Source of the DNA: a virus
Taxonomy: Duplodnaviria; Heunggongvirae; Uroviricota; Caudoviricetes
Virus record (IMG/VR): IMGVR_UViG_2861038214_000003
Span: 1-47,202 of that record
Reading direction: 5' to 3' (one strand)
DNA: 47,202 nucleotides
Of the stretch, positions 312 through 47,202 are shown one piece after another. Position 1 is the stretch's first letter. Every line of letters starts with the position of its first letter. The position numbers were made by a program, and so were the translations under genes. The notes under the pieces are model-generated. The model searched no databases, was not told where the DNA came from, and saw only the letters and a program-made list of their open reading frames with translations.

Positions 312-3300
312 TCAATGTTCGCTTCCTGTTAACTGCCCGACAAGTGCAACCAGTTCGCTTACCTGATTTTCCAGAGTGCTGATCCGGGTGCCTGCTGTTG
401 CCATATTTTTACGTAGCGTTATGTTTTCCTCTTCCAGCGCGGTAACGCGACCATCTGTTTCACGGGCGACCTGAACAAGTAACCCCGTCACGGCGGAGTA
501 GTCAACATTAAGATAGCGAGTTTCTTCGCGTAGCTCGTTGCCGTCAACGGTCGGACCTTGCAACTCTTCACCATAATGAGTAAACGATCCCACAGCTTCA
601 GGTATCGCCTCCATTACTTCCTGTGCAATAACGCCAGCATAAGGCATTCCGTTTTCCTTGAGCGTGTAGGTGTACCCGTTCATTTTACGGATTGCTTTCG
701 TCGCGTCGCTGATAACGCGAATATCGTCTTTAAGGTCGCGGTCTGATGACTGATTCAGCGTTGTGCAATTAATAGCGCCATTTACATCAAACAACTGGCC
801 TGCTGATGTTTTTTGCGCATAAAACAGATACGCAGCAGACGTTCCAACCTCAAAAACGTTTTGTCGATCACTTGATCCCCATACTTTTGCGGCAAATGAT
901 AGTTCTGTATTACCTAAGTTCTGTAAAACAAAACGATTGCCAGTCCCTGATTGCTTTGTAAGGGTTAAATCAACAGTTGAGTTAACCTCATCCTTGTTGA
1001 TAGTGAGCGCCTGCGCTTTAGCCCCGTTAACAGCACCTGTTTTGAGTTGAACCGCGCCGTCATTACCATTTAGCAGTATCTCAGCTCCGCTAAAGAAATT
1101 TTTTAGCGACAGCATCTTACTTACGCCGACTGATGAACCCAACGCCCACGCGAGAGAATTACCGGTGCTATCAAACCCACGTACAAAGCAATCCATTTTG
1201 CTATAGTCTGACGTGCTTCCAAGGACATCAATCCGCCCTCCGCCAGATTTTAACGGGTTAGATGTGGTTAATGACCTGACAGCAAGATCGGTGGATGAAT
1301 TTAGATCGTCTACTGTTAGTAATTTCTTCCATTCCTGCATCGTTCCGTTTTCAACTGTTCTTCCCCAAAAACCGGAATTGCGGCCTCCGAACTGCACAGC
1401 ATAATTTTTACTAAATTGAACATGAATGCCGCCAAGAACCATAGAACCTGCCGGGCCGTTTGTACTGCCTGCGATTGGTCTAAATTTGTCGACGTTATCA
1501 GTATGCTGAGAGTTCCAGTCATGACCTGTTAATGTTGCGATTCCTGAGTTAGCTGTAATTAACCCAGACGCTTTAAGATTTTGCACATCAATTCTGTCGT
1601 TTGCGAAATTATATGCAATTGCGTTACTAACGCTTCCGGCATCATCATAATCGCGTTTCTGAATAAACCAGTCGCCAGCATTAGCAATGAGAGTATAAGT
1701 AGGCGTGTTAGCCGGGCGATCTGTTTCATTAAATCTTATTGCTGGGTTAGCGCTCCTTATTTGTAAAGGTTTTTCAACCGTTGATTTCAGTATCGCACTA
1801 TCTACAATTAAATTACCTTCTGAGTTAAGGTTTAGATATTTTGAAGCACCAGTTGAACCATCGTATGTAAACCTTATTGTTAATTGACCTGGCTCATTTG
1901 ATAAAGTCTCAACATACATATCAGCACCAAGACGCACAGTGCTGTCAGTTGCTAACAGTCTTGTATGGAGAATACCACTAGATGTGTATGTATTGGTCGA
2001 ATCACTATATCTATCAAGAAATAGACTGTTAAGTTGAGGGCTATTACTCCTGCCTAATCCAAGATTCGTTCTGGCACCATCAATAGTTGCCGCACCAGTA
2101 CCACCATGAGAAACATCAAGCGGTATCCATTTTTTTTGTGTGTCGCTGTAACACCCCCATGTTGATCCGGTTAAACCCAGGCGCATGGATTTATCATGGT
2201 TATATAACCATGTTTCGCTATTCCATTGGTCAAGACGGTCCACTTCATTTTTGCGAGCGTGGCGTGTCCATTGCGGGCCTGTTGTCGGATTCCAGCGATA
2301 AGTATAAAGCGAGCGCGTAGCCCATCCCTGAAATACACCTGTATACGCTGGTGTTCCATCTACCTGACTAATAAACCCCGTAAGACTGCTTTCACCGGAT
2401 GCAATCGATGGAAAGCCTTTTGCATTACTCATAATGCGCATAAATCCGATATACCCTGATGGGTTGCCGGAAATATCAGGACAATCACGCGGGGCTGAGC
2501 CAAGACCGATATTATCGCCAACAATTACTTGCGCCTGGTTGCGATAATTAAGTGCGTCCGCCGCAGATTTCGCCGCGTTTGTTTCACTGGATTTAGCATT
2601 AGTTTCGCTGGCTTTAGCGTTTGTTTCGCTGCTCTTTGCTGCTGCCTCGCTATTTTTCGCGTTGGTTTCTGATTTTTTGGCTGCTGTCGCGGAGTTTGCC
2701 GATGCAGTTTGTGAGGCCGCTGCCGCCTGTGCGCTGTTATCCGCATTCGTCTCAGACGTTTTTGCGGCCTTCGCGGAATTTCCTGCCGCCGTTGCCGAGG
2801 AAGCTGCACTACTGGCACTTGATGATGCGTTCGTTTCTGATGATTTCGCTGCCTCTTTTGAGGCCGCCGCATCCCGGGCTGAGGTGGCAGCTTCTGACGC
2901 TTTCGTGGTCGCGGTGGATGCAGAAGTGGCGGCTGATTGTTGTGACGCTGCCGCATTCGTTTCTGACGTTTTCGCCGCACCGGCACTGGTGGCCGCCGCG
3001 CTTTTTGAGGACTCTGCAGCGGCAGCACTTTTTGATGCTTCAGTAGCCTTTGTTGATGCCGTTCCTGCGCTGGAAGACGCTGACTGAGCCGACGACGCGG
3101 CCTGTCCGGCTGACGTGCTGGCTGCGCGTGCTGAGTCTGCAGCATCAGTCGCATGGGTTGCCGCCTCACGGGCTGATGTGCCGGCATCGCCGGCTGACTT
3201 CTTCGCGGCTGCCGTGTTCTGTGCCACCGCGGACGCGTTACGCGCCACCTCTTCCACCATCAGCTCAAAACGGCGCAGTGCCTCCGGACGGACATCATCC

Positions 3301-3584
3301 TCCGTCATGGCACCAAGAAAATCATTCAGCGTACCGGGTTGAGAATCTTCATACACGGTGATGGTCCCGGCATGTGACGGCGGGAACCCTTCCACCAACA
3401 GAATAACGCTGTACTGACCGTACTCAACGTCCATGCTGTAACGCCCGGCTTCATCCGGATTTTCAGATGCCAGCGTGTTCACCACCACCGTGGTGCTGTT
3501 ACGTTTTGCTTTCAGCTGGATTGTGCAGTTCTGTACCGGTTTTCCTGTGCCGTCTTTCAGTACACCTGAAATCTTTACTGCCAT
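312..3584 (-). CDS. stf: Side tail fibre protein (Stf-like) with Ala/Ser/Thr-rich repeat region and a C-terminal intramolecular chaperone (peptidase S74-like) domain
   Basis: 1090-aa ORF, GGGGGG RBS before the ATG at 3584. The C-terminus (..GVIAQEVMEAIPEAV..LNVDYSAVTGLLVQVARE..ALEEENITLRKN..) matches my recollection of the autoproteolytic chaperone domain of endosialidase-type fibres. Position downstream of J and lom. Confidence 0.85.
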   Translation of the reverse strand: MAVKISGVLKDGTGKPVQNCTIQLKAKRNSTTVVVNTLASENPDEAGRYSMDVEYGQYSVILLVEGFPPSHAGTITVYEDSQPGTLNDFLGAMTEDDVRPEALRRFELMVEEVARNASAVAQNTAAAKKSAGDAGTSAREAATHATDAADSARAASTSAGQAASSAQSASSSAGTASTKATEASKSAAAAESSKSAAATSAGAAKTSETNAAASQQSAATSASTATTKASEAATSARDAAASKEAAKSSETNASSSASSAASSATAAGNSAKAAKTSETNADNSAQAAAASQTASANSATAAKKSETNAKNSEAAAKSSETNAKASETNAKSSETNAAKSAADALNYRNQAQVIVGDNIGLGSAPRDCPDISGNPSGYIGFMRIMSNAKGFPSIASGESSLTGFISQVDGTPAYTGVFQGWATRSLYTYRWNPTTGPQWTRHARKNEVDRLDQWNSETWLYNHDKSMRLGLTGSTWGCYSDTQKKWIPLDVSHGGTGAATIDGARTNLGLGRSNSPQLNSLFLDRYSDSTNTYTSSGILHTRLLATDSTVRLGADMYVETLSNEPGQLTIRFTYDGSTGASKYLNLNSEGNLIVDSAILKSTVEKPLQIRSANPAIRFNETDRPANTPTYTLIANAGDWFIQKRDYDDAGSVSNAIAYNFANDRIDVQNLKASGLITANSGIATLTGHDWNSQHTDNVDKFRPIAGSTNGPAGSMVLGGIHVQFSKNYAVQFGGRNSGFWGRTVENGTMQEWKKLLTVDDLNSSTDLAVRSLTTSNPLKSGGGRIDVLGSTSDYSKMDCFVRGFDSTGNSLAWALGSSVGVSKMLSLKNFFSGAEILLNGNDGAVQLKTGAVNGAKAQALTINKDEVNSTVDLTLTKQSGTGNRFVLQNLGNTELSFAAKVWGSSDRQNVFEVGTSAAYLFYAQKTSAGQLFDVNGAINCTTLNQSSDRDLKDDIRVISDATKAIRKMNGYTYTLKENGMPYAGVIAQEVMEAIPEAVGSFTHYGEELQGPTVDGNELREETRYLNVDYSAVTGLLVQVARETDGRVTALEEENITLRKNMATAGTRISTLENQVSELVALVGQLTGSEH
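2520..3190 (-). repeat. Degenerate in-frame tandem repeats (about 21 nt) encoding repeated (K/A)SSETNA-like heptads within stf
   Basis: Repeated units such as tttagcattagtttcgctgg / tttagcgtttgtttcgctgc on the plus strand; the protein shows KSETNAKNSEAAAKSSETNAKASETNAKSSETNAAKS. Confidence 0.7.
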
Positions 3585-24062: not shown

Positions 24063-24314
24063 TTAGTCCTGATTTTTATCCACCCTGAGTAGTTCGCGCA
24101 GAGCAAAGGCATCCCCTTTTCTGGCAAGCTTAAACAATGCCGCTCGTAACTCGGCTTCACCTTTCGCTCTGCCCTTACGGATGGCCGCATAAAAATCTGT
24201 CATTGCTTCCCGATTTTCTTTCAGTCGGTTCAGATCAACATCCAGAACGTCAGCGATTTGTTGTGCAGTCATCCGGCACGCTGCCAGAGACTCGACTTTC
24301 GAATACGGAATCAT
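24063..24314 (-). CDS. Small hypothetical protein (possible HTH)
   Basis: 83-aa ORF upstream of the packaging genes. Confidence 0.4.
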   Translation of the reverse strand: MIPYSKVESLAACRMTAQQIADVLDVDLNRLKENREAMTDFYAAIRKGRAKGEAELRAALFKLARKGDAFALRELLRVDKNQD

Positions 24315-25203
24315 TTGTCACCCCTATTGATATGCAGGGTGTCTTCTTCCTGTATTTTTCGTGAAGGATTTTTACTGCAGCGTTGTTCCAGGTGACCTGA
24401 TGGTGAATGCGTTTATGGCTGGCACCCATCAGTGAGATTTTTACGCACGACGGCGCATACATGACGGAGTAAAAACTTTTAACGTAGGTTCCGGAATCCA
24501 GATACAGCTCGGTCATTCCGCCGCTGTTTTTCTGCGTCTGTTTCTGCCCTAACTGGACAGCACCGATCGTCATGAACAATTCACCACAGCGACCGAGATT
24601 CGTGTACGTATTCACATCCTCGTTAATGCGCCCCATGAATGAGAACGGTCGATCAACCGAACAGATAAAGCTGTTCATTGCCTTGCGTTTCACCCACGAA
24701 GCATGGCCGCCATTGTCACCAAGAAAATCCCCGCCCTGCGACATAGCGATGGAAAGAGCAGGTATTGATTCGTAGTACGCCAGCATTTCAGAAAGGATCG
24801 CATCCAGTTTCCTTATCGGAAAATAGGCCTGGTCATAGTTGCGATCCACCCGAAACTGGAACTCGTGATAATCATCATCGAGCTGAATGAAGTATTTACA
24901 CCCGACCAGTTTTGCCAGGTCGAAACAGGCATTGCGGGCGTAAAAAATTGAGCGGCGGTCACAGAAATTATCGGCTTCGTCAAAACGACTGGCGATATCG
25001 GCTTTGGAAAACACCAGCACCTGTTCACCAAATTCAGCCATGTACTGATTCCGTGTCTTATCTTCATCATCAACAACGATAAAAATTTTCCCGGTATAGC
25101 CAGCACGACGCAACGTCCGGTAAGTCAGAACTTTGTCCGGTCGCCCGTGAGTCAGAATAAAGGCGCAAAAATCATCACGCATATTCCTCCTCCTCACCAC
25201 CAT
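24250..25203 (-). CDS. Hypothetical protein with GT-A glycosyltransferase-like motifs (tentative)
   Basis: FILTHGRPD, IVVDDED and QLDDDY resemble the N-terminal strand, DD and DxD motifs of GT-A enzymes; judged by eye only. Confidence 0.45.
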   Translation of the reverse strand: MVVRRRNMRDDFCAFILTHGRPDKVLTYRTLRRAGYTGKIFIVVDDEDKTRNQYMAEFGEQVLVFSKADIASRFDEADNFCDRRSIFYARNACFDLAKLVGCKYFIQLDDDYHEFQFRVDRNYDQAYFPIRKLDAILSEMLAYYESIPALSIAMSQGGDFLGDNGGHASWVKRKAMNSFICSVDRPFSFMGRINEDVNTYTNLGRCGELFMTIGAVQLGQKQTQKNSGGMTELYLDSGTYVKSFYSVMYAPSCVKISLMGASHKRIHHQVTWNNAAVKILHEKYRKKTPCISIGVTNDSVFESRVSGSVPDDCTTNR

Positions 25204-25966
25204 GCATGATCTCCACCATGCGCTGCGTCATCCGGACAAATCCATTTTCAATAGCCTGCTGATAATCAATGATCACCAGCGCCGACTCCTCGAAAAAACA
25301 CTGAATTTCAGAGGGGGCGTGAGCGTAATAGTCCGCAATTCTGCTGAAATTAAACACCGTGTGACGTTCTGCCGCACACAGGAGGAATTTCTCAATATCA
25401 GGCTCAAGGGACGCCGAACGTATCCGGCTGATCAGCTCCTGAGTTTTCGTATCGTCGTACAGTTCACTGATATCCGGTTTACCGCCCGACGGCTCATAAA
25501 CAGGCGTATCAATTTTCGTCGTATACGGCTCCTCCTCATTTCCTGTACCGGGCAAAACATCCGTCAACAGTTCATCAATTTCTGTCGGGATGAAGCCTGT
25601 CAGGGAGACATCAAAATCAGCATTGATTAGGTCCGACAGCTCCATCCGCAACAGATCTTCATCCCAGCCAGCATTCATCGGCAGGCGATTATCTGCCAGG
25701 CGGTACGCCTTTTTCTGCTCATCCGTCAGGCCAGACAGAACAATGACCGGAACAGAATCCATTTTGAGCATTTCAGCCGCCATAACACGACCGTGACCCG
25801 CAATAATTTCGCCCTTTTCGTCAATCAGCACCGGATTAGTCCAGCCGAATTGCTTAATACTTTCTACCAGTTGTGCCACCTGCTCAGTACTGTGCGTCCT
25901 GGCGTTGTGCGCATACGGTGACAATTCTTGTAATGGGCGATAGACTATCTTTAATTTCTCGCTCAT
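25175..25966 (-). CDS. ParB-like nuclease domain protein (ParB/Srx N-terminal fold), acidic C-terminus
   Basis: ..NPVLIDEKGEIIAGHGRVMAA.. is the ParB-Nterm GxxR-type motif. Confidence 0.7.
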   Translation of the reverse strand: MSEKLKIVYRPLQELSPYAHNARTHSTEQVAQLVESIKQFGWTNPVLIDEKGEIIAGHGRVMAAEMLKMDSVPVIVLSGLTDEQKKAYRLADNRLPMNAGWDEDLLRMELSDLINADFDVSLTGFIPTEIDELLTDVLPGTGNEEEPYTTKIDTPVYEPSGGKPDISELYDDTKTQELISRIRSASLEPDIEKFLLCAAERHTVFNFSRIADYYAHAPSEIQCFFEESALVIIDYQQAIENGFVRMTQRMVEIMHGGEEEEYA

Positions 25967-26103
25967 ACAGCCTTGCTTTATGAATAAAACGCACCCCAGC
26001 AGCCAGTGCTACTGGGGACGGAGGTGTTGCTGGTAAAGTTAGGTATTGGATCAATGAGTGAGTCAACATAATATTAAACTCACAATTATAAATCAGCCAT
26101 ATA

Positions 26104-27561
26104 TTAGGAGCGCCAAAAAAAACCTGAAAACAATATAATAACAGGATAAATTTCAAGGCGACCAAGAATCATAGCTATGCACATTAAACATTTTGCAATG
26201 TCATTAAGCACTCCGAATGACGATGCAGTAGCCCCAAAACCTAATCCCATATTATTAATACATGCAGCCACTGTTGCAAATGATGTAAGAAAATCATATC
26301 CCATACCATTTAACACCAGTATAAAAAACACCGTGAAGAGAGTATAAAGAAAAAAGAAACTCCATACAGACCTCATTACACGATCTGTAACTATCTTCCC
26401 TCCTACATTTACACTCAACAACGCTCTGGGATGAGAAAGCTGATTTATCTCGTGTTTGCTTTGTTTGAAAAGTATAAGAAATCGAAGTGACTTAATTCCA
26501 CCACAAGTTGAACCTATACATCCCCCAAAGAAACTTGACAACAGCAAAAACACTATCGTGTGCGTGGGCCAACTTGCATAATCCTGCGTAGCTAAACCAT
26601 TATCAGTGAGCATGGAGCTGGCAAGAAAAAACGAATGAATAAAACTTCCATGCAAGTCATACATACCTATATGCCAGACCTGGAAAGAGGTAACAATGAT
26701 CACCCCTAAGGCTATTAACAGAAAGAAACGAAGTTCAATATCTCTGATTAAAGGTTTTATCGTTTTCCTGCTAATAACAATATACCAAAGAGTGAAGTTG
26801 AAAGCCGATAGCAGGGAAAAAGAACCAGCCACCAGCTCAACCAAATAGTTATTAAAATATCCGATACTCTCGCTATGAGTTGAGAAACCACCAAGCGAAA
26901 CTGTGGAAATCCCGTGACAAATAGCATCAAACAAAGGCATTCCTGCAAGTCTATAACAGACAATACAAGCAATACCTAATAAAGAATAAGTTATCCACAG
27001 TGTCCGTGACGTATCGGCCAGGCGGGGAGTGAGTTTGTCATCCTTAAATGGCCCCGGCATTTCTGACTGATAAAGCTTTGCACCACCAATACCCAATAAT
27101 GGCAATACAGCAACCGCCAGAACAATAACTCCTAAACCACCTATAAAATTTAACTGTGACCGATAGTACAAATATGCCCGAGGTAATGAACTAACATCAT
27201 CAATTACAGTTGCTCCTGTTGTTGTTATTCCAGAAACCCCTTCAAACAGAGCATCAATGAACGTTAAATTAAGTTCTGAGTCAATCCATAAAGGGAATGC
27301 ACTAATAACAGAAAACAAAATCCAAAACATTACAATTATAATAAACCCATCACGGGTACGTAATTGAATGCCAGATTTCTTAGTTGTATACCACGCTCCG
27401 CCACCAATGCAAAAAAATATAACGAAAGTTATAAAGAAAACGAACAGGCTTTTTTCTTTATAAAACAATGCTACAACCATTGGTGGCAACATTGAAAGAC
27501 TATAGAGCCAAACCAGGAACCCACACATATGAGTAACAACTCTTACATGAGATGTATTCAT
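26104..27561 (-). CDS. trkG: Trk-system potassium uptake membrane protein TrkG
   Basis: From MNTSHVRVVTHMCGFLVWLY.. the protein matches my recollection of K-12 TrkG (Rac prophage); the ORF also extends 6 codons upstream to 27579. The region is visibly AT-rich. Confidence 0.9.
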   Translation of the reverse strand: MNTSHVRVVTHMCGFLVWLYSLSMLPPMVVALFYKEKSLFVFFITFVIFFCIGGGAWYTTKKSGIQLRTRDGFIIIVMFWILFSVISAFPLWIDSELNLTFIDALFEGVSGITTTGATVIDDVSSLPRAYLYYRSQLNFIGGLGVIVLAVAVLPLLGIGGAKLYQSEMPGPFKDDKLTPRLADTSRTLWITYSLLGIACIVCYRLAGMPLFDAICHGISTVSLGGFSTHSESIGYFNNYLVELVAGSFSLLSAFNFTLWYIVISRKTIKPLIRDIELRFFLLIALGVIIVTSFQVWHIGMYDLHGSFIHSFFLASSMLTDNGLATQDYASWPTHTIVFLLLSSFFGGCIGSTCGGIKSLRFLILFKQSKHEINQLSHPRALLSVNVGGKIVTDRVMRSVWSFFFLYTLFTVFFILVLNGMGYDFLTSFATVAACINNMGLGFGATASSFGVLNDIAKCLMCIAMILGRLEIYPVIILFSGFFWRS

Positions 27562-27698
27562 ATCTAAATATTCTTTCAATTATAACCACCTTGCTGCAAT
27601 ATTATGATTATACTGTATAAAATTTAACTCCTCTTAGATCTTACTTCACTGTTCCTTATGAAACAATCATCAAAATGAATCATATTGTAGTTAAGATT

Positions 27699-28163
27699 TT
27701 ACTTTAAACACTGCTCGGTTATGTATTGCTGAGCACCTTCAAGTTGGGCCTGCATCATTACCAGTCGTTCCCGGAGGGTGAAATAATCCCGTTCAGCGGT
27801 GTCTGCCAGTCGGGGGGAGGCTGCATTATCCACGCCGGAGGCGGTGGTGGCTTCACGCACTGACTGACAGACTGCTTTGATGTGCAACCGACGACGACCA
27901 GCGGCAACATCATCACGCAGAGCATCATTTTCAGCTTTCGCATCAGCTAACTCCTTCGTGTATTTTGCATCGAGCGCAGCAACATCACGCTGACGCATCT
28001 GCATGTCAGTAATTGCCGCGTTCGCCAGCTTCAGTTCTCTGGCATTTTTGTCGCGCTGTTCTTTGTAGGCGATGGCGTTATCACGGTAATGATTAACACC
28101 CCATGACAGGCAGACGACGATGCAGATAACCAGAGCGGAGATAATCGCGGTTACTCTGCTCAT
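27699..28163 (-). CDS. Rz: Spanin, inner-membrane subunit Rz
   Basis: Closely matches lambda Rz from memory ([15 protein letters not shown]..). Confidence 0.95.
27758..27943 (-). CDS. Rz1: Spanin, outer-membrane lipoprotein Rz1, embedded in the +1 frame of Rz
   Basis: [24 protein letters not shown].., lipobox VVGC, Pro-rich, lambda Rz1-like. Confidence 0.9.
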
Positions 28164-28636
28164 ACCTCAATCTCTCTGACCGTTCCGCCAGCTTCTTTGA
28201 ATTTTGCAATCAGACTGTCAGCCTTATGCTCGAACTGACCATAACCAGCGCCCGGCAGTGAAGCCCATATATTGCTGCAACGGTCGATAGCCTGACGGAT
28301 ATCACCGCGATCAATCATCGGCAAAGCGCCACGCTCTTTAATCTGCTGCAGCGCTACAGCATCCTGACTTTCTGGAGAAAAATCTTTCAGGCCAAGTTGC
28401 TTGCGGTAGGCATCCCACCAGCGTGAAAGAAGCTGGTAACGTCCAGCGGCTGTTGATTTGAGTTTCGGATTTAGCGTGACAAGTTTGCGGGGGTGATCGG
28501 AGTAATCAGTGAACAGTTCGCCACCGACAATAACATCATAACCGTGATTTCTGGTTTTCTGCCGTCCGTTATCTGTTCCTTCTGACCATGCCACCATATC
28601 AAGGAAAGCTTTACGCTGGGAATTAAGTGTCTGCAT
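28160..28636 (-). CDS. R: Endolysin (lambda R-like lytic transglycosylase)
   Basis: 158 aa, closely matching lambda R from memory (..[32 protein letters not shown]..). Confidence 0.95.
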
Positions 28637-28639
28637 TAA

Positions 28640-28990
28640 TTACTCCTTATGGGCACCGAACTTGTTACCGATGACCCTCATTGCCGCACCACGAATAGCA
28701 TCAACACCAATCAGCCCCACCCCACCACCAATGGCAACAGAAAGTGATTTAGGCCATCCGACATACTCAAGCGCGGATGCAAAGGTCAGCGTCAGAGCAC
28801 CACAAAGCAGAATCTCAAGCGTTTTTCGTTTCCAGCCGCCGCCACCGCCAAAATAGGCAATGCGCAAACCAGCCATAATAATTGACATAACCACTGCACC
28901 CAGCGGCGTATCTCCACGCCACCAACTTTGTAAGAGTTCCAGTAAGTCAGGCCAGGAATGAGGGGCATTGTGCATTTTCATAAGCCTCAC
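28640..28990 (-). CDS. Holin (not lambda S-like), three predicted TM segments, MRLMKMH N-terminus with alternative Met starts
   Basis: Position immediately upstream of the endolysin; hydrophobic segments; several Met codons in the first six residues. Confidence 0.75.
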   Translation of the reverse strand: MRLMKMHNAPHSWPDLLELLQSWWRGDTPLGAVVMSIIMAGLRIAYFGGGGGWKRKTLEILLCGALTLTFASALEYVGWPKSLSVAIGGGVGLIGVDAIRGAAMRVIGNKFGAHKE

Positions 28991-32314: not shown

Positions 32315-34144
32315 ATGAGCACTTCCGCATACAAGAGCAAAATTCGAACACTCCAGTGCGCGTTAAAAAACGGTGAATTTGAACCATTCATACAACATAT
32401 CCGTTTTCCATACTTTAAAAATATAGAGCAGAATGCAAGGATCGATTTTCAGTTCCCTATAACGGCTTTAGTAGGAAAAAATGGAACTAATAAAAGTTCT
32501 GTTATCAAAGCGCTATTTGGTTGCCCACATGGTAAAAATATAACTCGTTATTGGTTCACAACTGAAACAGATGAGTTTCCTGACCTAAAACTTGCTGATG
32601 GCAGTTCTCTTAAACCTAGATATATATATGGATATAAAAATGCTGATGGCCGTTTAGTTGAAATACTCCAAGCACGTATCAATGCTACCAAGAAAACAAT
32701 CGATTATTGGGAAACAAGTCGACCATCTGTTGGTGATAACATGGAGAGTATTTCGGATGATCTGGGTGCTAATAGTAATGCAACCAGATGGAAAAAAATC
32801 AAGAAGGGATTGGTTTTCCTAGATTTCAGATCGGAAATAAGTGCATTTGATAGATGTATGTATCACTCTGATTTTAAATTAAGAAAGAAGAAGAGTGGTG
32901 TATTAATTACAAAGCAAGACTATATCAGAAGCAAATCTAAATATATAAAGAAAGCTTTTGATGAAAAGCTAAGTAATTTAAGACTCTGGGGGGCGGAAAC
33001 CATTGTTAAAAATATAACCTTGGCGCCAGAACTAGTTGAGCACGTCTCATTTATATTAGGGAAAAAATATAAAGTCATTAAATTTCTTGAGCATCGGTTA
33101 TTTGGAACCAGAGGAGGAACCGCTTTACTTTCAACTGATAAGTTGAACTATACAGAAGCGTTTGCTGGAAGTGGTGAATTTGCAATAGTTTCACTAATAC
33201 TCAATATTTATTCGGCCAAACCTAATTCATTAATTCTTCTTGACGAACCAGAAGTTTCACTTCACCCTGGTGCACAAAAAAGGATGATGGATGTTCTGTA
33301 CTCTATTGTTGAGCAGAAAAAACATCAAGTGGTAATATCAACCCATTCTCCTGTTATTGTGAACACTCTTCCCAAAGATGCCATTAAATTATTTGTTTTT
33401 GATGAAGAGAGTGAAACAGCTAAAATAGTTCAAAATATAGCACCGGATGAAGCTTTTATAGAGCTAGGGCATGATATTAACAAGAAAACAATAATTGTAG
33501 AAGATAAATTAGCTAAAGCAATTATAGATAAAGCGATTAAAAATGATGAAAGATTAAGCTTATCATTTAGTGTAAGTTATATACCAGGTGGTTCGGAGAC
33601 CATTTTAAGCAAGCATCTTCCCAGTTACGCTGTGGTAGAACGCAATGATATTTTGTTTTTACTTGATGGTGATAAAAACAAAAAAATAAAACCAGTAAGA
33701 ATTAGTGAAATTGCTGATGCTGATTTAGTTAATACAATGTGCAAATATTATGGTTGCGAGTTAATTATCAATGCCAGTGGTAGTAATGGCAAAAAAAATG
33801 AACAAGAATCTAATAGACTCAAAAGGCAAGTGCTTGAGTATGCATTCAATAAAGTGCAGTATTTACCATTTGATACTCCCGAACAATTACTCATTGAAAA
33901 GGCAATTACGCCAAGTGAAAAAGAAATAATTGATTCACAGACCTGGAGTTCTAATGATCCAGAACTGTATAAGAATCAAATAAGATTATTAGCGCAACAC
34001 CTGTATGATAAAGAAGAAGTAAATGCAGAGGAAATTTTTTGCCTCCAACAAATGATGACCGCAAGACTTAAAAATGAATTGCCTGAATTTATAAAAATAA
34101 GAAAAATAATTACTCAGGCTCTTGACCGTGGTATCATTAGGTAG
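32315..34144 (+). CDS. OLD-family ABC-ATPase/TOPRIM nuclease (class 1 OLD-like, or a fused PARIS-like AriA-AriB)
   Basis: Deviant Walker A LVGKNGTNKSS, Walker B with LHP (LILLDEPEVSLHPGA), H-loop VISTHSP, then TOPRIM-like Glu (TIIVEDKLAKA) and DxD (LFLLDGDKNKK); 609 aa, AT-rich. Confidence 0.75.
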   Translation: MSTSAYKSKIRTLQCALKNGEFEPFIQHIRFPYFKNIEQNARIDFQFPITALVGKNGTNKSSVIKALFGCPHGKNITRYWFTTETDEFPDLKLADGSSLKPRYIYGYKNADGRLVEILQARINATKKTIDYWETSRPSVGDNMESISDDLGANSNATRWKKIKKGLVFLDFRSEISAFDRCMYHSDFKLRKKKSGVLITKQDYIRSKSKYIKKAFDEKLSNLRLWGAETIVKNITLAPELVEHVSFILGKKYKVIKFLEHRLFGTRGGTALLSTDKLNYTEAFAGSGEFAIVSLILNIYSAKPNSLILLDEPEVSLHPGAQKRMMDVLYSIVEQKKHQVVISTHSPVIVNTLPKDAIKLFVFDEESETAKIVQNIAPDEAFIELGHDINKKTIIVEDKLAKAIIDKAIKNDERLSLSFSVSYIPGGSETILSKHLPSYAVVERNDILFLLDGDKNKKIKPVRISEIADADLVNTMCKYYGCELIINASGSNGKKNEQESNRLKRQVLEYAFNKVQYLPFDTPEQLLIEKAITPSEKEIIDSQTWSSNDPELYKNQIRLLAQHLYDKEEVNAEEIFCLQQMMTARLKNELPEFIKIRKIITQALDRGIIR

Positions 34145-34167
34145 TGATTCTGGATGCAGAGGGAAAA

Positions 34168-35208
34168 ATGAAAAAAATCAAAGTGTTTGACTTCTTTTCC
34201 GGTTGTGGTGGAACCAGCCAAGGTTTCCATCAAGCTGGAATGGATATTGTTTTTGGCCTCGATTTCGACGTTGATGCAGCCAGTTCATTTCGTGCAAATT
34301 TCCCGCAGGCTGCTTTTATTAACTCGGACATTAGGTTAATCGACAACAATGCCATAAACAAGTTAGTAAAAAAACATCGTAATGATTACATTCTTTTTTC
34401 AGGATGTGCGCCTTGTCAACCGTACTCTAAGCAAAACTCAAATAAGAAAAATGATGATCCACGATTAGATCTATTAAAGGAATTCAGTCGCTTTGTAGAG
34501 CATTATATGCCTGATTTTATTTTTGTTGAAAACGTGCCAGGAATGCAAAAGTTTAACAAAAATGAAGGAACATTCATGATGTTTTTAGAAATGCTTTCAT
34601 CAAAGGGATATAGTGTAGATTATAAAGTAATGCCAGCTGCGTGGTACGGTGTACCACAGACGCGAGAAAGATTAGTGCTCATTGCATCCAAGGATTTTTA
34701 TGTCGCATTGCCTTCTCCTACACATGGGGTTGGAAATACTCCCTATTCAACAGTAAAGGACTGGATCGCTAATTTACCGAAGATAGAAGCAGGAGAAAAG
34801 CATAATAGTATTCCTGATCATGAAGCTGCACGCTTATCAGAGCTTAATTTACGTAGAATAAAATGCACTCCTGAAGGTGGAAGTCGAGAATTTTGGCCAG
34901 ATGAATTGATTTTAGAATGCCATCGTAACCATAAAGGGCATACAGACGTATATGGACGTTTGAGTTGGGACAAACCAGCCAGCGGACTAACAACTCGTTG
35001 TATTAGCTATTCAAATGGACGTTTTGGACATCCAACACAAAATCGAGCAATATCGGTTCGTGAAGCAGCGTGTCTACAAACATTTCCTTTGGATTATAAA
35101 TTTATTGGTTCTTTGCAATCTCGGGCTCGTCAAATAGGAAATGCGGTCCCTCCGAAGATGTCTGAAACGATTGGAAAACATTTGCTTAATATAATCAAAG
35201 CCTCCTAG
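34168..35208 (+). CDS. DNA (cytosine-5)-methyltransferase (Dcm-type)
   Basis: Motif I FDFFSGCGG, motif IV GCAPCQPYS, motif VI FVENVPG, motif VIII QTRERL, motif X GNAVPP; GAGGG RBS before the ATG at 34168 (the ORF track start at 34144 is GTG). Confidence 0.95.
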   Translation: MKKIKVFDFFSGCGGTSQGFHQAGMDIVFGLDFDVDAASSFRANFPQAAFINSDIRLIDNNAINKLVKKHRNDYILFSGCAPCQPYSKQNSNKKNDDPRLDLLKEFSRFVEHYMPDFIFVENVPGMQKFNKNEGTFMMFLEMLSSKGYSVDYKVMPAAWYGVPQTRERLVLIASKDFYVALPSPTHGVGNTPYSTVKDWIANLPKIEAGEKHNSIPDHEAARLSELNLRRIKCTPEGGSREFWPDELILECHRNHKGHTDVYGRLSWDKPASGLTTRCISYSNGRFGHPTQNRAISVREAACLQTFPLDYKFIGSLQSRARQIGNAVPPKMSETIGKHLLNIIKAS

Positions 35209-45966: not shown

Positions 45967-47202
45967 ATGTCTAAATTACCAACAGGTGTCGAGATTAGAG
46001 GTAGATACATTCGCATCTGGTTCATGTTTCGAGGAAAACGATGTCGGGAAACATTAAAAGGCTGGGAGATTACAAACAGTAATATTAAAAAGGCCGGAAA
46101 TTTAAGAGCGCTGATAGTTCATGAAATAAACTCCGGTGAATTTGAGTATTTAAGACGTTTTCCCCAGTCCAGCACTGGGGCAAAAATGGTGACAACGAGA
46201 GTCATAAAAACGTTCGGAGAGCTTTGTGATATCTGGACAAAAATTAAAGAGACAGAGTTAACAACAAACACAATGAAGAAAACGAAATCACAATTAAAAA
46301 CACTCAGAATAATAATTTGTGAAAGTACCCCGATATCACATATTCGTTATAGCGATATCTTAAACTACCGGAATGAACTGCTGCATGGAGAAACGCTTTA
46401 CCTGGATAATCCAAGATCCAACAAAAAAGGAAGAACCGTGCGCACAGTTGATAACTATATCGCCCTGCTCTGTTCGCTGTTGCGTTTTGCGTATCAGTCG
46501 GGATTTATATCAACCAAACCATTTGAAGGAGTAAAAAAATTACAGCGAAACAGAATAAAGCCTGATCCGTTATCTAAAACAGAATTCAATGCATTAATGG
46601 AAAGTGAAAAAGGACAGAGCCAGAACTTGTGGAAATTTGCCGTTTACTCAGGACTTCGTCACGGGGAACTGGCAGCTCTGGCGTGGGAGGATGTGGATCT
46701 CGAAAAGGGAATAGTGAATGTCAGAAGAAACCTGACGATACTTGATATGTTCGGTCCCCCAAAAACAAATGCCGGGATCCGAACAGTAACACTACTGCAG
46801 CCTGCTCTTGAAGCACTGAAGGAGCAATACAAACTGACCGGGCATCATCGCAAAAGCGAAATCACCTTTTATCATCGGGAGTACGGCAGAACCGAAAAGC
46901 AAAAACTGCATTTTGTTTTCATGCCCAGGGTGTGTAACGGAAAACAAAAACCTTATTACTCGGTAAGCAGTTTGGGGGCAAGGTGGAATGCAGCAGTAAA
47001 ACGTGCTGGTATTCGCCGCCGTAATCCGTACCATACGCGGCATACTTTTGCCTGCTGGCTGTTGACGGCAGGAGCGAACCCGGCATTTATAGCCAGCCAA
47101 ATGGGGCATGAAACTGCGCAGATGGTGTATGAAATTTACGGTATGTGGATTGATGACATGAACGACGAACAGATAGCCATGTTGAATGCGCGGTTATCGT
47201 AG
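45967..47202 (+). CDS. intR: Tyrosine-type site-specific integrase
   Basis: 411 aa; C-terminal catalytic region ..HTRHTFACWLLTAGANPAFIASQMGHETAQMVYEIYGMW..; stop codon is the last triplet of the window. Confidence 0.9.
   Translation: MSKLPTGVEIRGRYIRIWFMFRGKRCRETLKGWEITNSNIKKAGNLRALIVHEINSGEFEYLRRFPQSSTGAKMVTTRVIKTFGELCDIWTKIKETELTTNTMKKTKSQLKTLRIIICESTPISHIRYSDILNYRNELLHGETLYLDNPRSNKKGRTVRTVDNYIALLCSLLRFAYQSGFISTKPFEGVKKLQRNRIKPDPLSKTEFNALMESEKGQSQNLWKFAVYSGLRHGELAALAWEDVDLEKGIVNVRRNLTILDMFGPPKTNAGIRTVTLLQPALEALKEQYKLTGHHRKSEITFYHREYGRTEKQKLHFVFMPRVCNGKQKPYYSVSSLGARWNAAVKRAGIRRRNPYHTRHTFACWLLTAGANPAFIASQMGHETAQMVYEIYGMWIDDMNDEQIAMLNARLS

Follow-up and report, generated by a model that had tools for sequence, protein, structure and literature searches.

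Two overlapping late genes of an E. coli Rac-type prophage, located in the window (the whole 47,202-nucleotide stretch of DNA analysed, IMG/VR record IMGVR_UViG_2861038214_000003), encode a ParB-like protein and a glycosyltransferase (GT) that form a strictly paired two-protein module, conserved across domains of life rather than being lineage-specific cargo. With a probability of about 0.5, the GT of this module depends on its partner and modifies phage DNA ahead of packaging. The initial annotation had listed the pair as cargo; the accessory status holds, but the label undersells a module that, unlike trkG, is strictly paired and cross-domain.

Both genes are real. Their open reading frames (ORFs) lie on the minus strand at 25175-25966 (263 aa) and 24250-25203 (317 aa, the longest ORF), and the locus comprises the following features:

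25175 to 25966, minus strand: gene for the ParB/Srx-family partner, 263 aa, acidic, full-length YnaK (ORF, Pfam, PHROG, PADLOC)
24250 to 25182, minus strand: gene for the predicted GT-A glycosyltransferase, 310 aa, soluble, TAGT family (Pfam, phrog, AF2, Foldseek)
25562 to 25966, minus strand: ParB-type, putatively nucleotide-binding domain and helix-helix segment, aa 1-135, with box II (GxxR, presumed NTP site) IIAGHGR (AF2, Foldseek, profile alignment)
25490 to 25525, minus strand: invariant Y-T-x-K-I-x-x-P-x-Y-x-P stretch, aa 148-159, within a linker predicted to be disordered (alignments, AF2)
25202 to 25459, minus strand: helical C-terminal domain (C-domain), aa ~170-255, family-specific, with an acidic tail (alignments, Pfam null)
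24871 to 24879, minus strand: codons for the GT DDD motif, D102-D104, putatively for metal and nucleotide-sugar (invariant in alignment)
25175 to 25195, minus strand: probable translational-coupling junction with SD, GT ATG and ParB TGA (read from sequence)
24063 to 24272, minus strand: small HTH ORF akin to TerS N-termini, context (phrog_309, 8e-23; PGAP CDS)
25994 to 26017, minus strand: hairpin resembling a terminator, with the trkG moron on one side and the ParB gene on the other, context (consensus scan only)

The true GT start is taken to be the ATG at 25180-25182, because GT homologues from many phyla always begin with MRDDFCAF and the PGAP product has 310 aa. This start is preceded by a purine-rich SD, GAGGAGGAGGA, at 25185-25195 and overlaps the ParB stop TGA (25175-25177) by 8 nt, reading ATGCGTGA, as against 29 nt for the longest GT ORF. 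The overlap that had been claimed for the two genes is thus present, and in most related loci they also overlap or abut. From this arrangement the pair appears to be translationally coupled and to head the late packaging operon. The small HTH ORF in turn overlaps the GT 3' end by 23 nt, which chains the genes into the terminase operon. This ORF is a packaging gene outside the ParB/GT module and travels with the TerS type of the prophage in Enterobacterales loci only. The hairpin on the trkG side, seen in the consensus scan, has a 10-bp stem in which 7 pairs are GC, and its tail is rich in T; promoter-like sites were not in excess in the promoter/terminator scan (6, against 8.3 in shuffled sequence).

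The GT is most probably a soluble, metal-dependent GT-A enzyme of the TAGT family. It matches the Pfam TAGT profile (PF20691) across positions 4-205 of 205 (E 9e-35, 120.9 bits against a cut-off of 27.5) and phrog_842 at 1e-103, and PGAP names it 'GREB1-related protein'. What had been read by eye as a DD/DxD-like motif corresponds to LDDDY (D102-D104), which never varies in the family alignment; R14 and N187-E188-D189 are likewise invariant there. These residues agree with the R...DDD...ED signature described in JGT and in the GT-A enzymes with which phages glycosylate DNA (bioRxiv 10.1101/2023.12.21.572611). The AF2 model exceeds pLDDT 90 over the N-terminal half, while the C-terminal third is poorly modelled; the AF2 alignments are shallow (18-19 sequences, 55-85% identity) and the models moderate (mean pLDDT 65). 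The best Foldseek matches are SpsA, ColGalT1, SunS/ThuS, glycogenin and GnT-I, all of them GT-A enzymes, with E from 1e-4 to 5e-3 but TM only ~0.3 for SpsA, ColGalT1, glycogenin and GnT-I. Structure prediction therefore returned a GT-A fold, and the refuting outcome that the initial annotation had named, the lack of such a fold, did not occur. The GT has a pI of 8.0 and no TM segment, and neither protein is membrane-spanning (maximum 19-aa hydropathy 1.1-1.25). The GT profile found no sequence-detectable relative among PDB sequences, and neither protein scores above cut-off in NCBIfam.

The partner has a ParB/Srx fold, as had been surmised by eye. It scores against Pfam ParB_N (PF02195) at 9e-7 (29.3 bits, cut-off 26.3), and its Foldseek matches are Noc, ParB-CDP, PadC, KorB, Srx and SerK, the leading ones at E 1e-6 to 1e-2. 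It also matches phrog_620 (1e-90) and phrog_498 (ParB-MTase, 9e-51). Because PADLOC returns no match for the GT and only an MTase_II N-terminus for the partner (1.5e-38), that is, an MTase-type ParB domain alone, the pair is not a known defence system. Model confidence is 70-90 pLDDT over aa 1-135 and below 50 over aa 136-157, and the C-domain is poorly modelled. With partition ParB proteins (Spo0J, Noc, KorB) the partner shares the fold and the box II glycine and arginine: IIAGHGR aligns to IIAGERRWRA of Noc with the Gly and last Arg retained. It differs from them in lacking the HTH DNA-binding domain, ParA and the canonical C-terminal dimerisation domain, in carrying His for the catalytic GERR glutamate, and in its acidity (pI 4.49; family median 4.6). 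The partner sequence holds no recognisable DNA-binding domain, neither a ParA nor a partner HTH was found in the protein or the window, and the partition family TIGR00180 scores below its cut-off (38.1 bits against 58.45). On these grounds, GenBank labels of 'partition protein' are misleading.

Beyond the ParB domain, the residues Y148, P155, Y157 and P164 are retained by 99% of 150 cluster representatives, and T149 is nearly invariant. The C-domain follows the pattern FLxxAAxRHxxF...IAxYYAH...ExSALVIID...AIxxG, with R201, H202, Y214, E226, S228 and D234 invariant. It matches no Pfam family even at E<=10, and 1189 clusters match it at E<=1e-3.

Pairing of the two genes is strict. With the C-domain as sole query, 80 loci were fetched, and the GT adjoins the C-domain in all 79 that were testable; all cultured-phage records with the C-domain (28/28) also carry the GT. 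Conversely, a partner lies directly upstream of the GT at every GT locus examined, in at least 13 phyla and lineages. The constant companion of the GT is the linker plus C-domain, not the ParB domain: in some phages the partner consists of the C-domain only, so the ParB domain is dispensable there. No ParB-GT fusions were seen among the listed GT homologues or the 150 best C-domain representatives. Longer E. coli entries are chimeras, produced by deletion or by assembly, that carry tail, Lom or terminase domains. Both the GT and its ParB-like partner are matched by more than 8000 clusters at 90% identity. The module occurs in phages of E. coli, Bacteroides, Lactobacillus, Vibrio, Nocardia and Saccharibacteria and in one Haloarcula virus, and the E. 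coli GT is 50-57% identical to those of Bacteroides or Saccharibacteria. This spread over bacteria and an archaeal virus calls for a universal substrate. Some versions of the module add a second GT (TAGT), a TAGT-MTase fusion, sugar-nucleotide enzymes or a radical-SAM enzyme.

The module usually sits just upstream of the terminase genes, which belong to at least five unrelated families of both cos and pac types; in phage c5 it directly follows the cos site. In some phages it lies amid replication genes (DNA pol A, sliding clamp, helicase, primase). The pair is accessory, since phages with homologous TerS/TerL do without it, in keeping with its earlier placement outside the core head module. 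It fills a moron hot-spot, the slot between the lysis and the terminase genes, where trkG also lies here and where Rac-SA53 has toxin genes that include LT-IIa. Position upstream of TerS/TerL in most phages, and after cos in c5, would suit a packaging accessory: the ParB-like 'nuclease' would recognise or cleave pac/cos DNA on behalf of the neighbouring terminase, with the GT as a passenger. That role is very unlikely given the homologous terminases that occur without the pair, the toxin genes in the same slot, the variety of terminase families, the replication-gene sites and the constancy of the GT as opposed to the ParB domain. Nor did profile searches place either protein in a known terminase-accessory family, the other refuting outcome that had been foreseen.

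Prophage-encoded glycosyltransferases often modify O-antigen. That habit and the moron hot-spot are what a seroconversion role has in its favour, with the lysogen altering its surface glycans as through gtr or other O-antigen-modifying genes. The suggestion had been raised at the outset and is now the least probable of those considered: both proteins are soluble, the prophage has no GtrA/GtrB-type partners, and the pair is co-transcribed with late genes and has no lysogenic promoter of its own. Moreover, the module is found in archaeal, Gram-positive, Bacteroidota and Saccharibacteria (CPR) viruses, whose hosts have unrelated envelopes.

Two known kinds of ParB-containing system resemble the pair. 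Phage thymine dioxygenases (5mYOX) need ParB-like proteins to act on dsDNA (O'Toole et al., PNAS 2026, PMC13229309). Those activators have an NBD-linker-CTD build and no DNA-binding domain and work in cognate pairs; NBD and CTD both matter, and NTP-site mutations are tolerated (PMC13229309). Shared with the prophage locus are a DNA-modification-type enzyme adjoining a ParB-like gene, the NBD, a helical segment, a disordered linker and a CTD, and the tolerated mutations are echoed by Bacteroides-type partners, which have no box II arginine. The enzyme here is instead a TAGT glycosyltransferase with no dioxygenase present, and the C-domain, compared by description, is distinct, highly conserved and able to stand without a ParB domain. 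The partner and GT are an adjacent cognate pair of 5mYOX-ParB architecture, in which by analogy the partner is predicted to activate the enzyme. The second kind comprises ParB-domain/DNA MTase fusions (phrog_498; PF02195+PF01555), which are enriched in prophages (Kaljevic et al., PNAS 2025, PMC12704722). Their N-termini are the nearest phage relatives of the partner's ParB domain (40-57% identity), and in temperate phages the fusions hold similar late or pre-terminase positions; unlike in them, the enzyme here is a separate polypeptide, a glycosyltransferase, and would be linked via a dedicated C-domain.

In the proposed mechanism, the GT would be the catalytic subunit of an obligate two-protein enzyme. 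The linker and C-domain may attach to the GT and either activate it or make it complete. The ParB domain would couple the GT to DNA, as the same domain does when fused to phage DNA methyltransferases and as ParB-like activators do for phage thymine dioxygenases. Coupled expression from the head of the late packaging operon would mean that the phage genome is glycosylated after replication, just before packaging, and in the next host the glycosylated genome may then be shielded against restriction or other defences that sense DNA. The MTase-like ParB domain, terminase and replication neighbours and cross-domain spread argue for DNA as the acceptor; strict pairing, the overlapping gene junction, the glycan-building expansions and the precedent of the dioxygenase activators support the mechanism as a whole. 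Against it stand the acidic partner without a recognisable DNA-binding domain, the dispensability of the ParB domain in some phages, the loss of the box II arginine in some partners and the moderate quality of the AF2 models.

A further point against DNA is that no source of a hydroxylated base was found. Characterised TAGT members glycosylate hydroxymethyl-pyrimidines, or sugars already on them, in phage and kinetoplastid DNA. With the PF20691 TAGTs (T2/T6 beta-glucosyl-HMC-alpha-glucosyltransferase, 5mYOX-linked GT-A, kinetoplastid JGT, GREB1) the GT shares family, GT-A fold and the R...DDD...ED motif, and the variants with a tandem second GT recall the GTs that act in sequence in clusters for cytosine hypermodification. 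In contrast to these enzymes, it has an obligate ParB-C-domain partner and forms a separate subfamily, from which tblastn at 1e-5 did not retrieve the T-even TAGTs. It is also accompanied by no alpha/beta-GT, TET/5mYOX or dCMP/dUMP hydroxymethylase, and the acceptors 5hmC, 5hmU and glucosyl-5hmC are absent. The whole prophage contains no TET/JBP, thymidylate-synthase-type hydroxymethylase or other hydroxylated-base source. The annotation of phage c5 likewise shows no hydroxymethyl-base source, and no hydroxymethylpyrimidine source occurs among the 25 commonest families of 148 neighbour ORFs, which precede a further 35 single-hit families. Of the DNA or protein modification that had been suggested for the module, DNA is the better supported candidate, even though it comes with no 5-hydroxymethylpyrimidine-producing enzyme.

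If DNA is modified, the lack of a 5hmC/5hmU source implies that the acceptor is a canonical base or another DNA nucleophile. We know of no enzyme that glycosylates canonical DNA bases. A glycosylation without precedent is proposed only tentatively: either a sugar placed straight onto a canonical base or another nucleophile of DNA, without a hydroxymethyl precursor, or a protein-primed glycan on the invariant Tyr/Thr motif of the partner.

A protein acceptor as such is rather unlikely, yet a serious alternative. The GT might glycosylate the partner itself on a Tyr or Thr of YTxKIxxPxYxP, in the manner of glycogenin, or another phage or host protein, with the ParB domain incidental. No hydroxylated base would be required, Y148 and Y157 are invariant in a linker of pLDDT below 50, and it is this linker with the C-domain that always accompanies the GT. 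The TAGT-family enzyme GREB1 O-GlcNAcylates a protein (PMC7968844), which also weighs against DNA, and glycogenin and the peptide S-glycosyltransferases SunS/ThuS are structural neighbours. However, an invariant linear motif fits a docking peptide equally well, it is not obvious what selection would conserve a glycosylated acidic carrier protein all the way from E. coli to viruses of haloarchaea, and the ParB domain held in common with DNA methyltransferases, together with the replication and packaging context, points to DNA. A specific virion-protein target is further disfavoured by the wide differences between the structural modules that adjoin the pair. Glycosylation of some other universal molecule (a tRNA or RNA base such as queuosine, a nucleotide second messenger or a metabolite) for anti-defence or host takeover would suit the wide host range, the missing hydroxylated base and the solubility of the GT. 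It is improbable, as no supporting gene association was seen, the kinship of the ParB domain with DNA methyltransferases would go unexplained, and a late-operon or replication-module position is atypical of early takeover genes.

The GT corresponds to the 'solitary TAGTs' found in 288 of 753 GT-bearing phage genomes, whose function was called undefined (PMC13216743). Pyle et al. give ~65% as the share of viral contigs with a GT that lack a neighbouring 5mYOX or thymidylate synthase. Much of this unexplained set now gains a defined anatomy: a GT strictly paired with a C-domain/ParB partner, to which genes for donor synthesis may be added. The gene pair may already be depicted by Iyer et al. in 2013. 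Should DNA be the acceptor, the principle of a ParB-like activator would hold for glycosyltransferases as well as dioxygenases, and bases glycosylated without any hydroxymethyl handle may come to light; direct transfer to DNA would amount to a new DNA-modification class in ~1 in 6 sequenced E. coli genomes and in bacterial and archaeal viruses. If the partner protein is the acceptor, the pair would represent a new kind of viral glycoprotein system. With either acceptor, the database labels 'partition protein', 'ParB-like nuclease' and 'beta-glucosyl-HMC-alpha-glucosyltransferase' are corrected. The intact copy lies in an E. coli prophage that can be induced and for which knock-outs, nucleoside MS and defence-panel plaque assays are routine methods.

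A link to the C5 DNA methyltransferase of the window (34144-35208) was considered and rejected; this gene belongs to a separate island of low GC that also holds an AAA ATPase, and it is absent from other ParB-GT loci. Finally, ynaK of K-12 is an 87-aa stump of the 263-aa partner, which explains the origin of this orphan fragment.

Both open reading frames are present where the initial annotation had placed a ParB-like protein and a possible GT-A-like protein:

25175-25966, minus strand, the ParB-like protein (hereafter the partner), 263 aa, matching Pfam ParB_N above cut-off and, along its entire length, PHROG 620
24250-25182, minus strand, the glycosyltransferase (GT), 310 aa, ATG at 25182, matching Pfam PF20691 (TET-associated glycosyltransferase, TAGT; 9e-35) and PHROG 842 (1e-103)

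The GT carries the RefSeq name 'GREB1-related protein', and its true start is taken to be the ATG at 25182 because homologues from many phyla begin with MRDDFCAF. A GAGGAGGAGGA run lies upstream of this start, which overlaps the partner stop by 8 nt, and the 3' end of the GT gene overlaps the next open reading frame by 23 nt. A small frame at 24063-24314 (minus strand; 69 aa by PGAP, 83 aa as the longest frame) resembles the HTH part of TerS (phrog_309, 8e-23). The Escherichia coli GT ends in a tail of about 20 aa, absent in other lineages, that falls in the overlap with this small frame.

Structure prediction with AlphaFold2, based on shallow alignments, gave moderate models (mean pLDDT about 65) with a GT-A fold for the GT and a ParB/Srx fold for the partner. 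GT residues 1-150 were modelled confidently, and Foldseek searches against the PDB returned GT-A enzymes and relatives only (SpsA, collagen galactosyltransferase, SunS/ThuS, glycogenin, and GnT-I). The DxD first picked out by eye corresponds to an invariant LDDDY in the GT alignment; further invariant elements there are R14, N187-E188-D189, and an R-I-H-H motif. In the partner, residues 1-135 are predicted to form the ParB/Srx domain, with Noc, ParB-CDP, PadC, KorB, and sulfiredoxin as the best Foldseek matches and a box II sequence, IIAGHGR, that aligned to IIAGERRWRA of Noc. Residues 136-157 are predicted to be disordered and the remainder helical, the latter at low confidence. Neither outcome that the initial annotation had named as contrary, a GT lacking the GT-A fold or membership in a terminase-accessory family, appeared.

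The two genes are a module. GT-encoding loci were drawn from viral and genome collections and their open reading frames searched with the window proteins; a ParB-like frame lies directly upstream of the GT, mostly overlapping it, in every locus with upstream DNA. Hosts of these loci include Escherichia, Serratia, Pantoea, Bacteroides, Dysgonomonas, Lachnospiraceae, Faecousia, Desulfovibrionaceae, Prosthecochloris, Thiotrichales, Opitutia, Hyphomonadaceae, and Saccharibacteria. Independently, 80 viral loci were fetched by sequences of the partner's C-terminal helical part (C-domain) alone, and those with downstream DNA encode a GT of the same subfamily without exception (79/79), so that the co-occurrence analysis proposed earlier reveals strict pairing. 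Among cultured phages, the GT is found in 36 records, covering E. coli prophage-derived phages, Lactobacillus phages c5, LL-Ku, phiLdb, and jlb1, 191-kb Vibrio phages, Nocardia phage NTR1, Porphyromonas phages, and the archaeal virus HHTV-2. Of these 36 records, 28 also contain the C-domain, which no other cultured phage has.

Unexpectedly, partner residues 140-263 are more conserved than the ParB domain. At 50% identity the C-domain family falls into 1189 clusters, and it has no Pfam entry; the domain is always C-terminal, mostly in proteins of 240-310 aa, with a minority of C-domain-only proteins (128-200 aa). Across 150 representatives, Y148, P155, Y157, and P164 are invariant in the linker (motif YTxKIxxPxYxP, residues 148-159), as are F194, L195, R201, H202, Y214, E226, S228, and D234 in the helical C-domain. 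The box II arginine binds nucleotide phosphate in ParB proteins. In Bacteroides-type partners (Bacteroidales loci L090, L092, L099, L103, and L105), IAGNGVYE replaces IAGHGR, and this arginine is lost while the C-domain and GT are kept. Some 310-aa partners (loci L162 and L188) have N-termini without a Pfam ParB match, and a Faecousia prophage (L094, 8875-9447) encodes a second, stand-alone ParB_N protein of 190 aa directly after the pair.

Enterobacterales loci are arranged as partner, GT, small HTH frame, TerS, TerL, and portal. Elsewhere the pair lies upstream of unrelated terminases (GpA type, Terminase_3, T7-like, and GP3/Sf6-type TerS), and in the cos phage c5 the two genes are the first past the cos site, ahead of the terminase. 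A packaging-accessory role might be read from these positions, but it is very improbable. Homologous TerS/TerL also occur in phages where the pair is absent (Klebsiella ST846-OXA48phi9.2, Yersinia vB_YenM_29.18, and Rac-SA53 among them), so the pair is only an accessory to the packaging genes. A Lachnospiraceae phage and the Vibrio phages have a C-domain-only partner, and there the pair is located among genes for DNA polymerase A, sliding clamp, helicase, and primase.

Extra genes separate partner and GT in about 20 loci. Variant cassettes include the following:

L104, 3581-5275, variant cassette
L140, 5356-6339, variant cassette
L142, 2845-5282, variant cassette
L134, 5345-6322, variant cassette
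L131, 5390-6778, variant cassette

Inserts encode a second TAGT paralogue, a TAGT-SAM methyltransferase fusion, a histidine-phosphatase (His_Phos_1)/cytidylyltransferase fusion, a CofD-like protein with a MobA-like nucleotidyltransferase (NTP_transf_3), or a radical-SAM enzyme. Such genes would be expected in a glycan-building cassette and support an active GT. One variant-cassette GT bears a 187-aa N-terminal extension.

Counting toward DNA as the substrate are the 40-57% identity of the partner's ParB domain to the N-termini of phage DNA methyltransferases and the replication and packaging genes surrounding the pair. Characterised TAGT-family enzymes modify DNA, with the exception of GREB1, which modifies protein (PMC7968844). 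Work from 2026 showed that a subclass of phage thymine dioxygenases acting on dsDNA needs ParB-like proteins with the same NBD-linker-CTD layout and no DNA-binding domain (PMC13229309), and prophages are enriched in ParB-methyltransferase fusions (PMC12704722). GT identity of 43-57% across bacterial phyla and into archaeal viruses implies a universal substrate; glycosylation of some universal acceptor other than DNA or protein is quite improbable. Against a simple DNA reading count the strongly acidic partner (pI 4.5; family median 4.6), the only mildly basic GT (pI about 8.2), and the ParB domain, which is optional and in some versions lacks the box II arginine. The usual TAGT acceptors are missing as well, since no TET/JBP dioxygenase or hydroxymethylase was found in the prophage, annotated in phage c5, or recurrent in 148 neighbour frames.

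Where the initial annotation had proposed a DNA or protein modification module, the DNA side is favored here with a probability of about 0.5. The pair would constitute a partner-dependent, late-expressed glycosyltransferase modifying phage DNA before packaging, in which the C-domain and linker would form an obligate subunit that binds the GT, and the ParB domain, an optional adaptor, may couple the enzyme to DNA. Glycosylation of protein, be it the partner or another, is the main rival and is considered unlikely; the invariant tyrosines and threonine of the disordered linker could be the acceptor itself, or could instead form a docking peptide. The seroconversion-like role also put forward can hardly be expected, as neither protein has membrane segments. 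PADLOC made no defence-system assignment for the pair. As for the chemistry, direct base glycosylation or a protein-primed glycan is a tentative proposal. Because an inducible E. coli prophage carries the pair, decisive experiments are simple.

By profile, fold, and motifs the GT fits Pfam TAGT, but it fails the contextual hallmark of a nearby hydroxymethylpyrimidine source. It belongs among the 'solitary TAGTs', called functionally undefined in 2026 and found in 288 of 753 GT-bearing phage genomes (PMC13216743), and among the roughly 65% of GT contigs that lack a neighbouring 5mYOX or ThyS gene (Pyle et al.). The partner is a member of the ParB/Srx superfamily but differs from partition ParB (below the TIGR00180 cut-off, no HTH, no ParA); by analogy, 5mYOX-activating ParBs and ParB-MTase fusions may be its closest functional counterparts. 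Iyer and colleagues reportedly predicted in 2013 that phage DNA-modifying enzymes are guided by ParB domains, and the ParB-GT neighbourhood may appear in that paper. The literature search found no experimental study of the pair. A ParB adaptor with a DNA-modification enzyme and TAGT glycosyltransferases are known kinds. The apparently new features are that the pairing is strict and pan-viral and involves a dedicated, un-catalogued C-domain, that some partners consist of the C-domain only, that donor-synthesis genes expand some loci, and that no known acceptor-generating enzyme accompanies the pair.

The window is an essentially complete lambdoid, Rac-type prophage of E. coli. Read from its right end, it encodes integrase, recE/recT, sieB, ydaS/ydaT, replication genes, a Q-like antiterminator region, lysis cassette, trkG moron, partner, GT, small HTH frame, TerS, TerL, portal, head and tail genes, Lom, and tail fibre:

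45967-47202, integrase, right end of the window
27699-28990, lysis cassette
26104-27579, trkG moron
25994-26017, terminator-like hairpin after trkG

Of 5426 complete E. coli genomes, 866 carry at least 80% of the 2.1-kb segment 24000-26100, as do ten deposited phage records. In K-12 MG1655 (locus L194), the GT and all packaging and head genes are deleted, and ynaK (1425377-1425640; 87 aa, 'ParB-like nuclease domain-containing protein') is an N-terminal remnant of the 263-aa partner. Many database clusters are deletion chimeras like ynaK, carrying Lom, tail, or terminase domains.

An inserted trkG (38% GC) separates the lysis cassette from the partner gene (25967-27579, minus strand). The equivalent slot in Rac-SA53 holds LT-IIa enterotoxin genes, which marks it as a moron hot-spot. 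The Q-like region and the replication region are separated by a low-GC island (33-38%; 32315-35208, plus strand) that resembles a defence or R-M-type moron and is not linked with the ParB-GT pair at other loci. Its genes specify a 609-aa AAA_21/AAA_15 ATPase (PADLOC HEC-04, 1.7e-34; also ATPase-Toprim, PtuA, AriA, and GajA-like matches) and, directly after it, a 354-aa C5 cytosine DNA methyltransferase (Pfam 5e-61; PADLOC MTase_II 1e-96, DruM2 5e-92). In the side tail fibre (312-3584, minus strand), a prophage tail-fibre N-domain is followed at the C-terminus by a Peptidase_S74 intramolecular chaperone domain (Pfam 2e-14).
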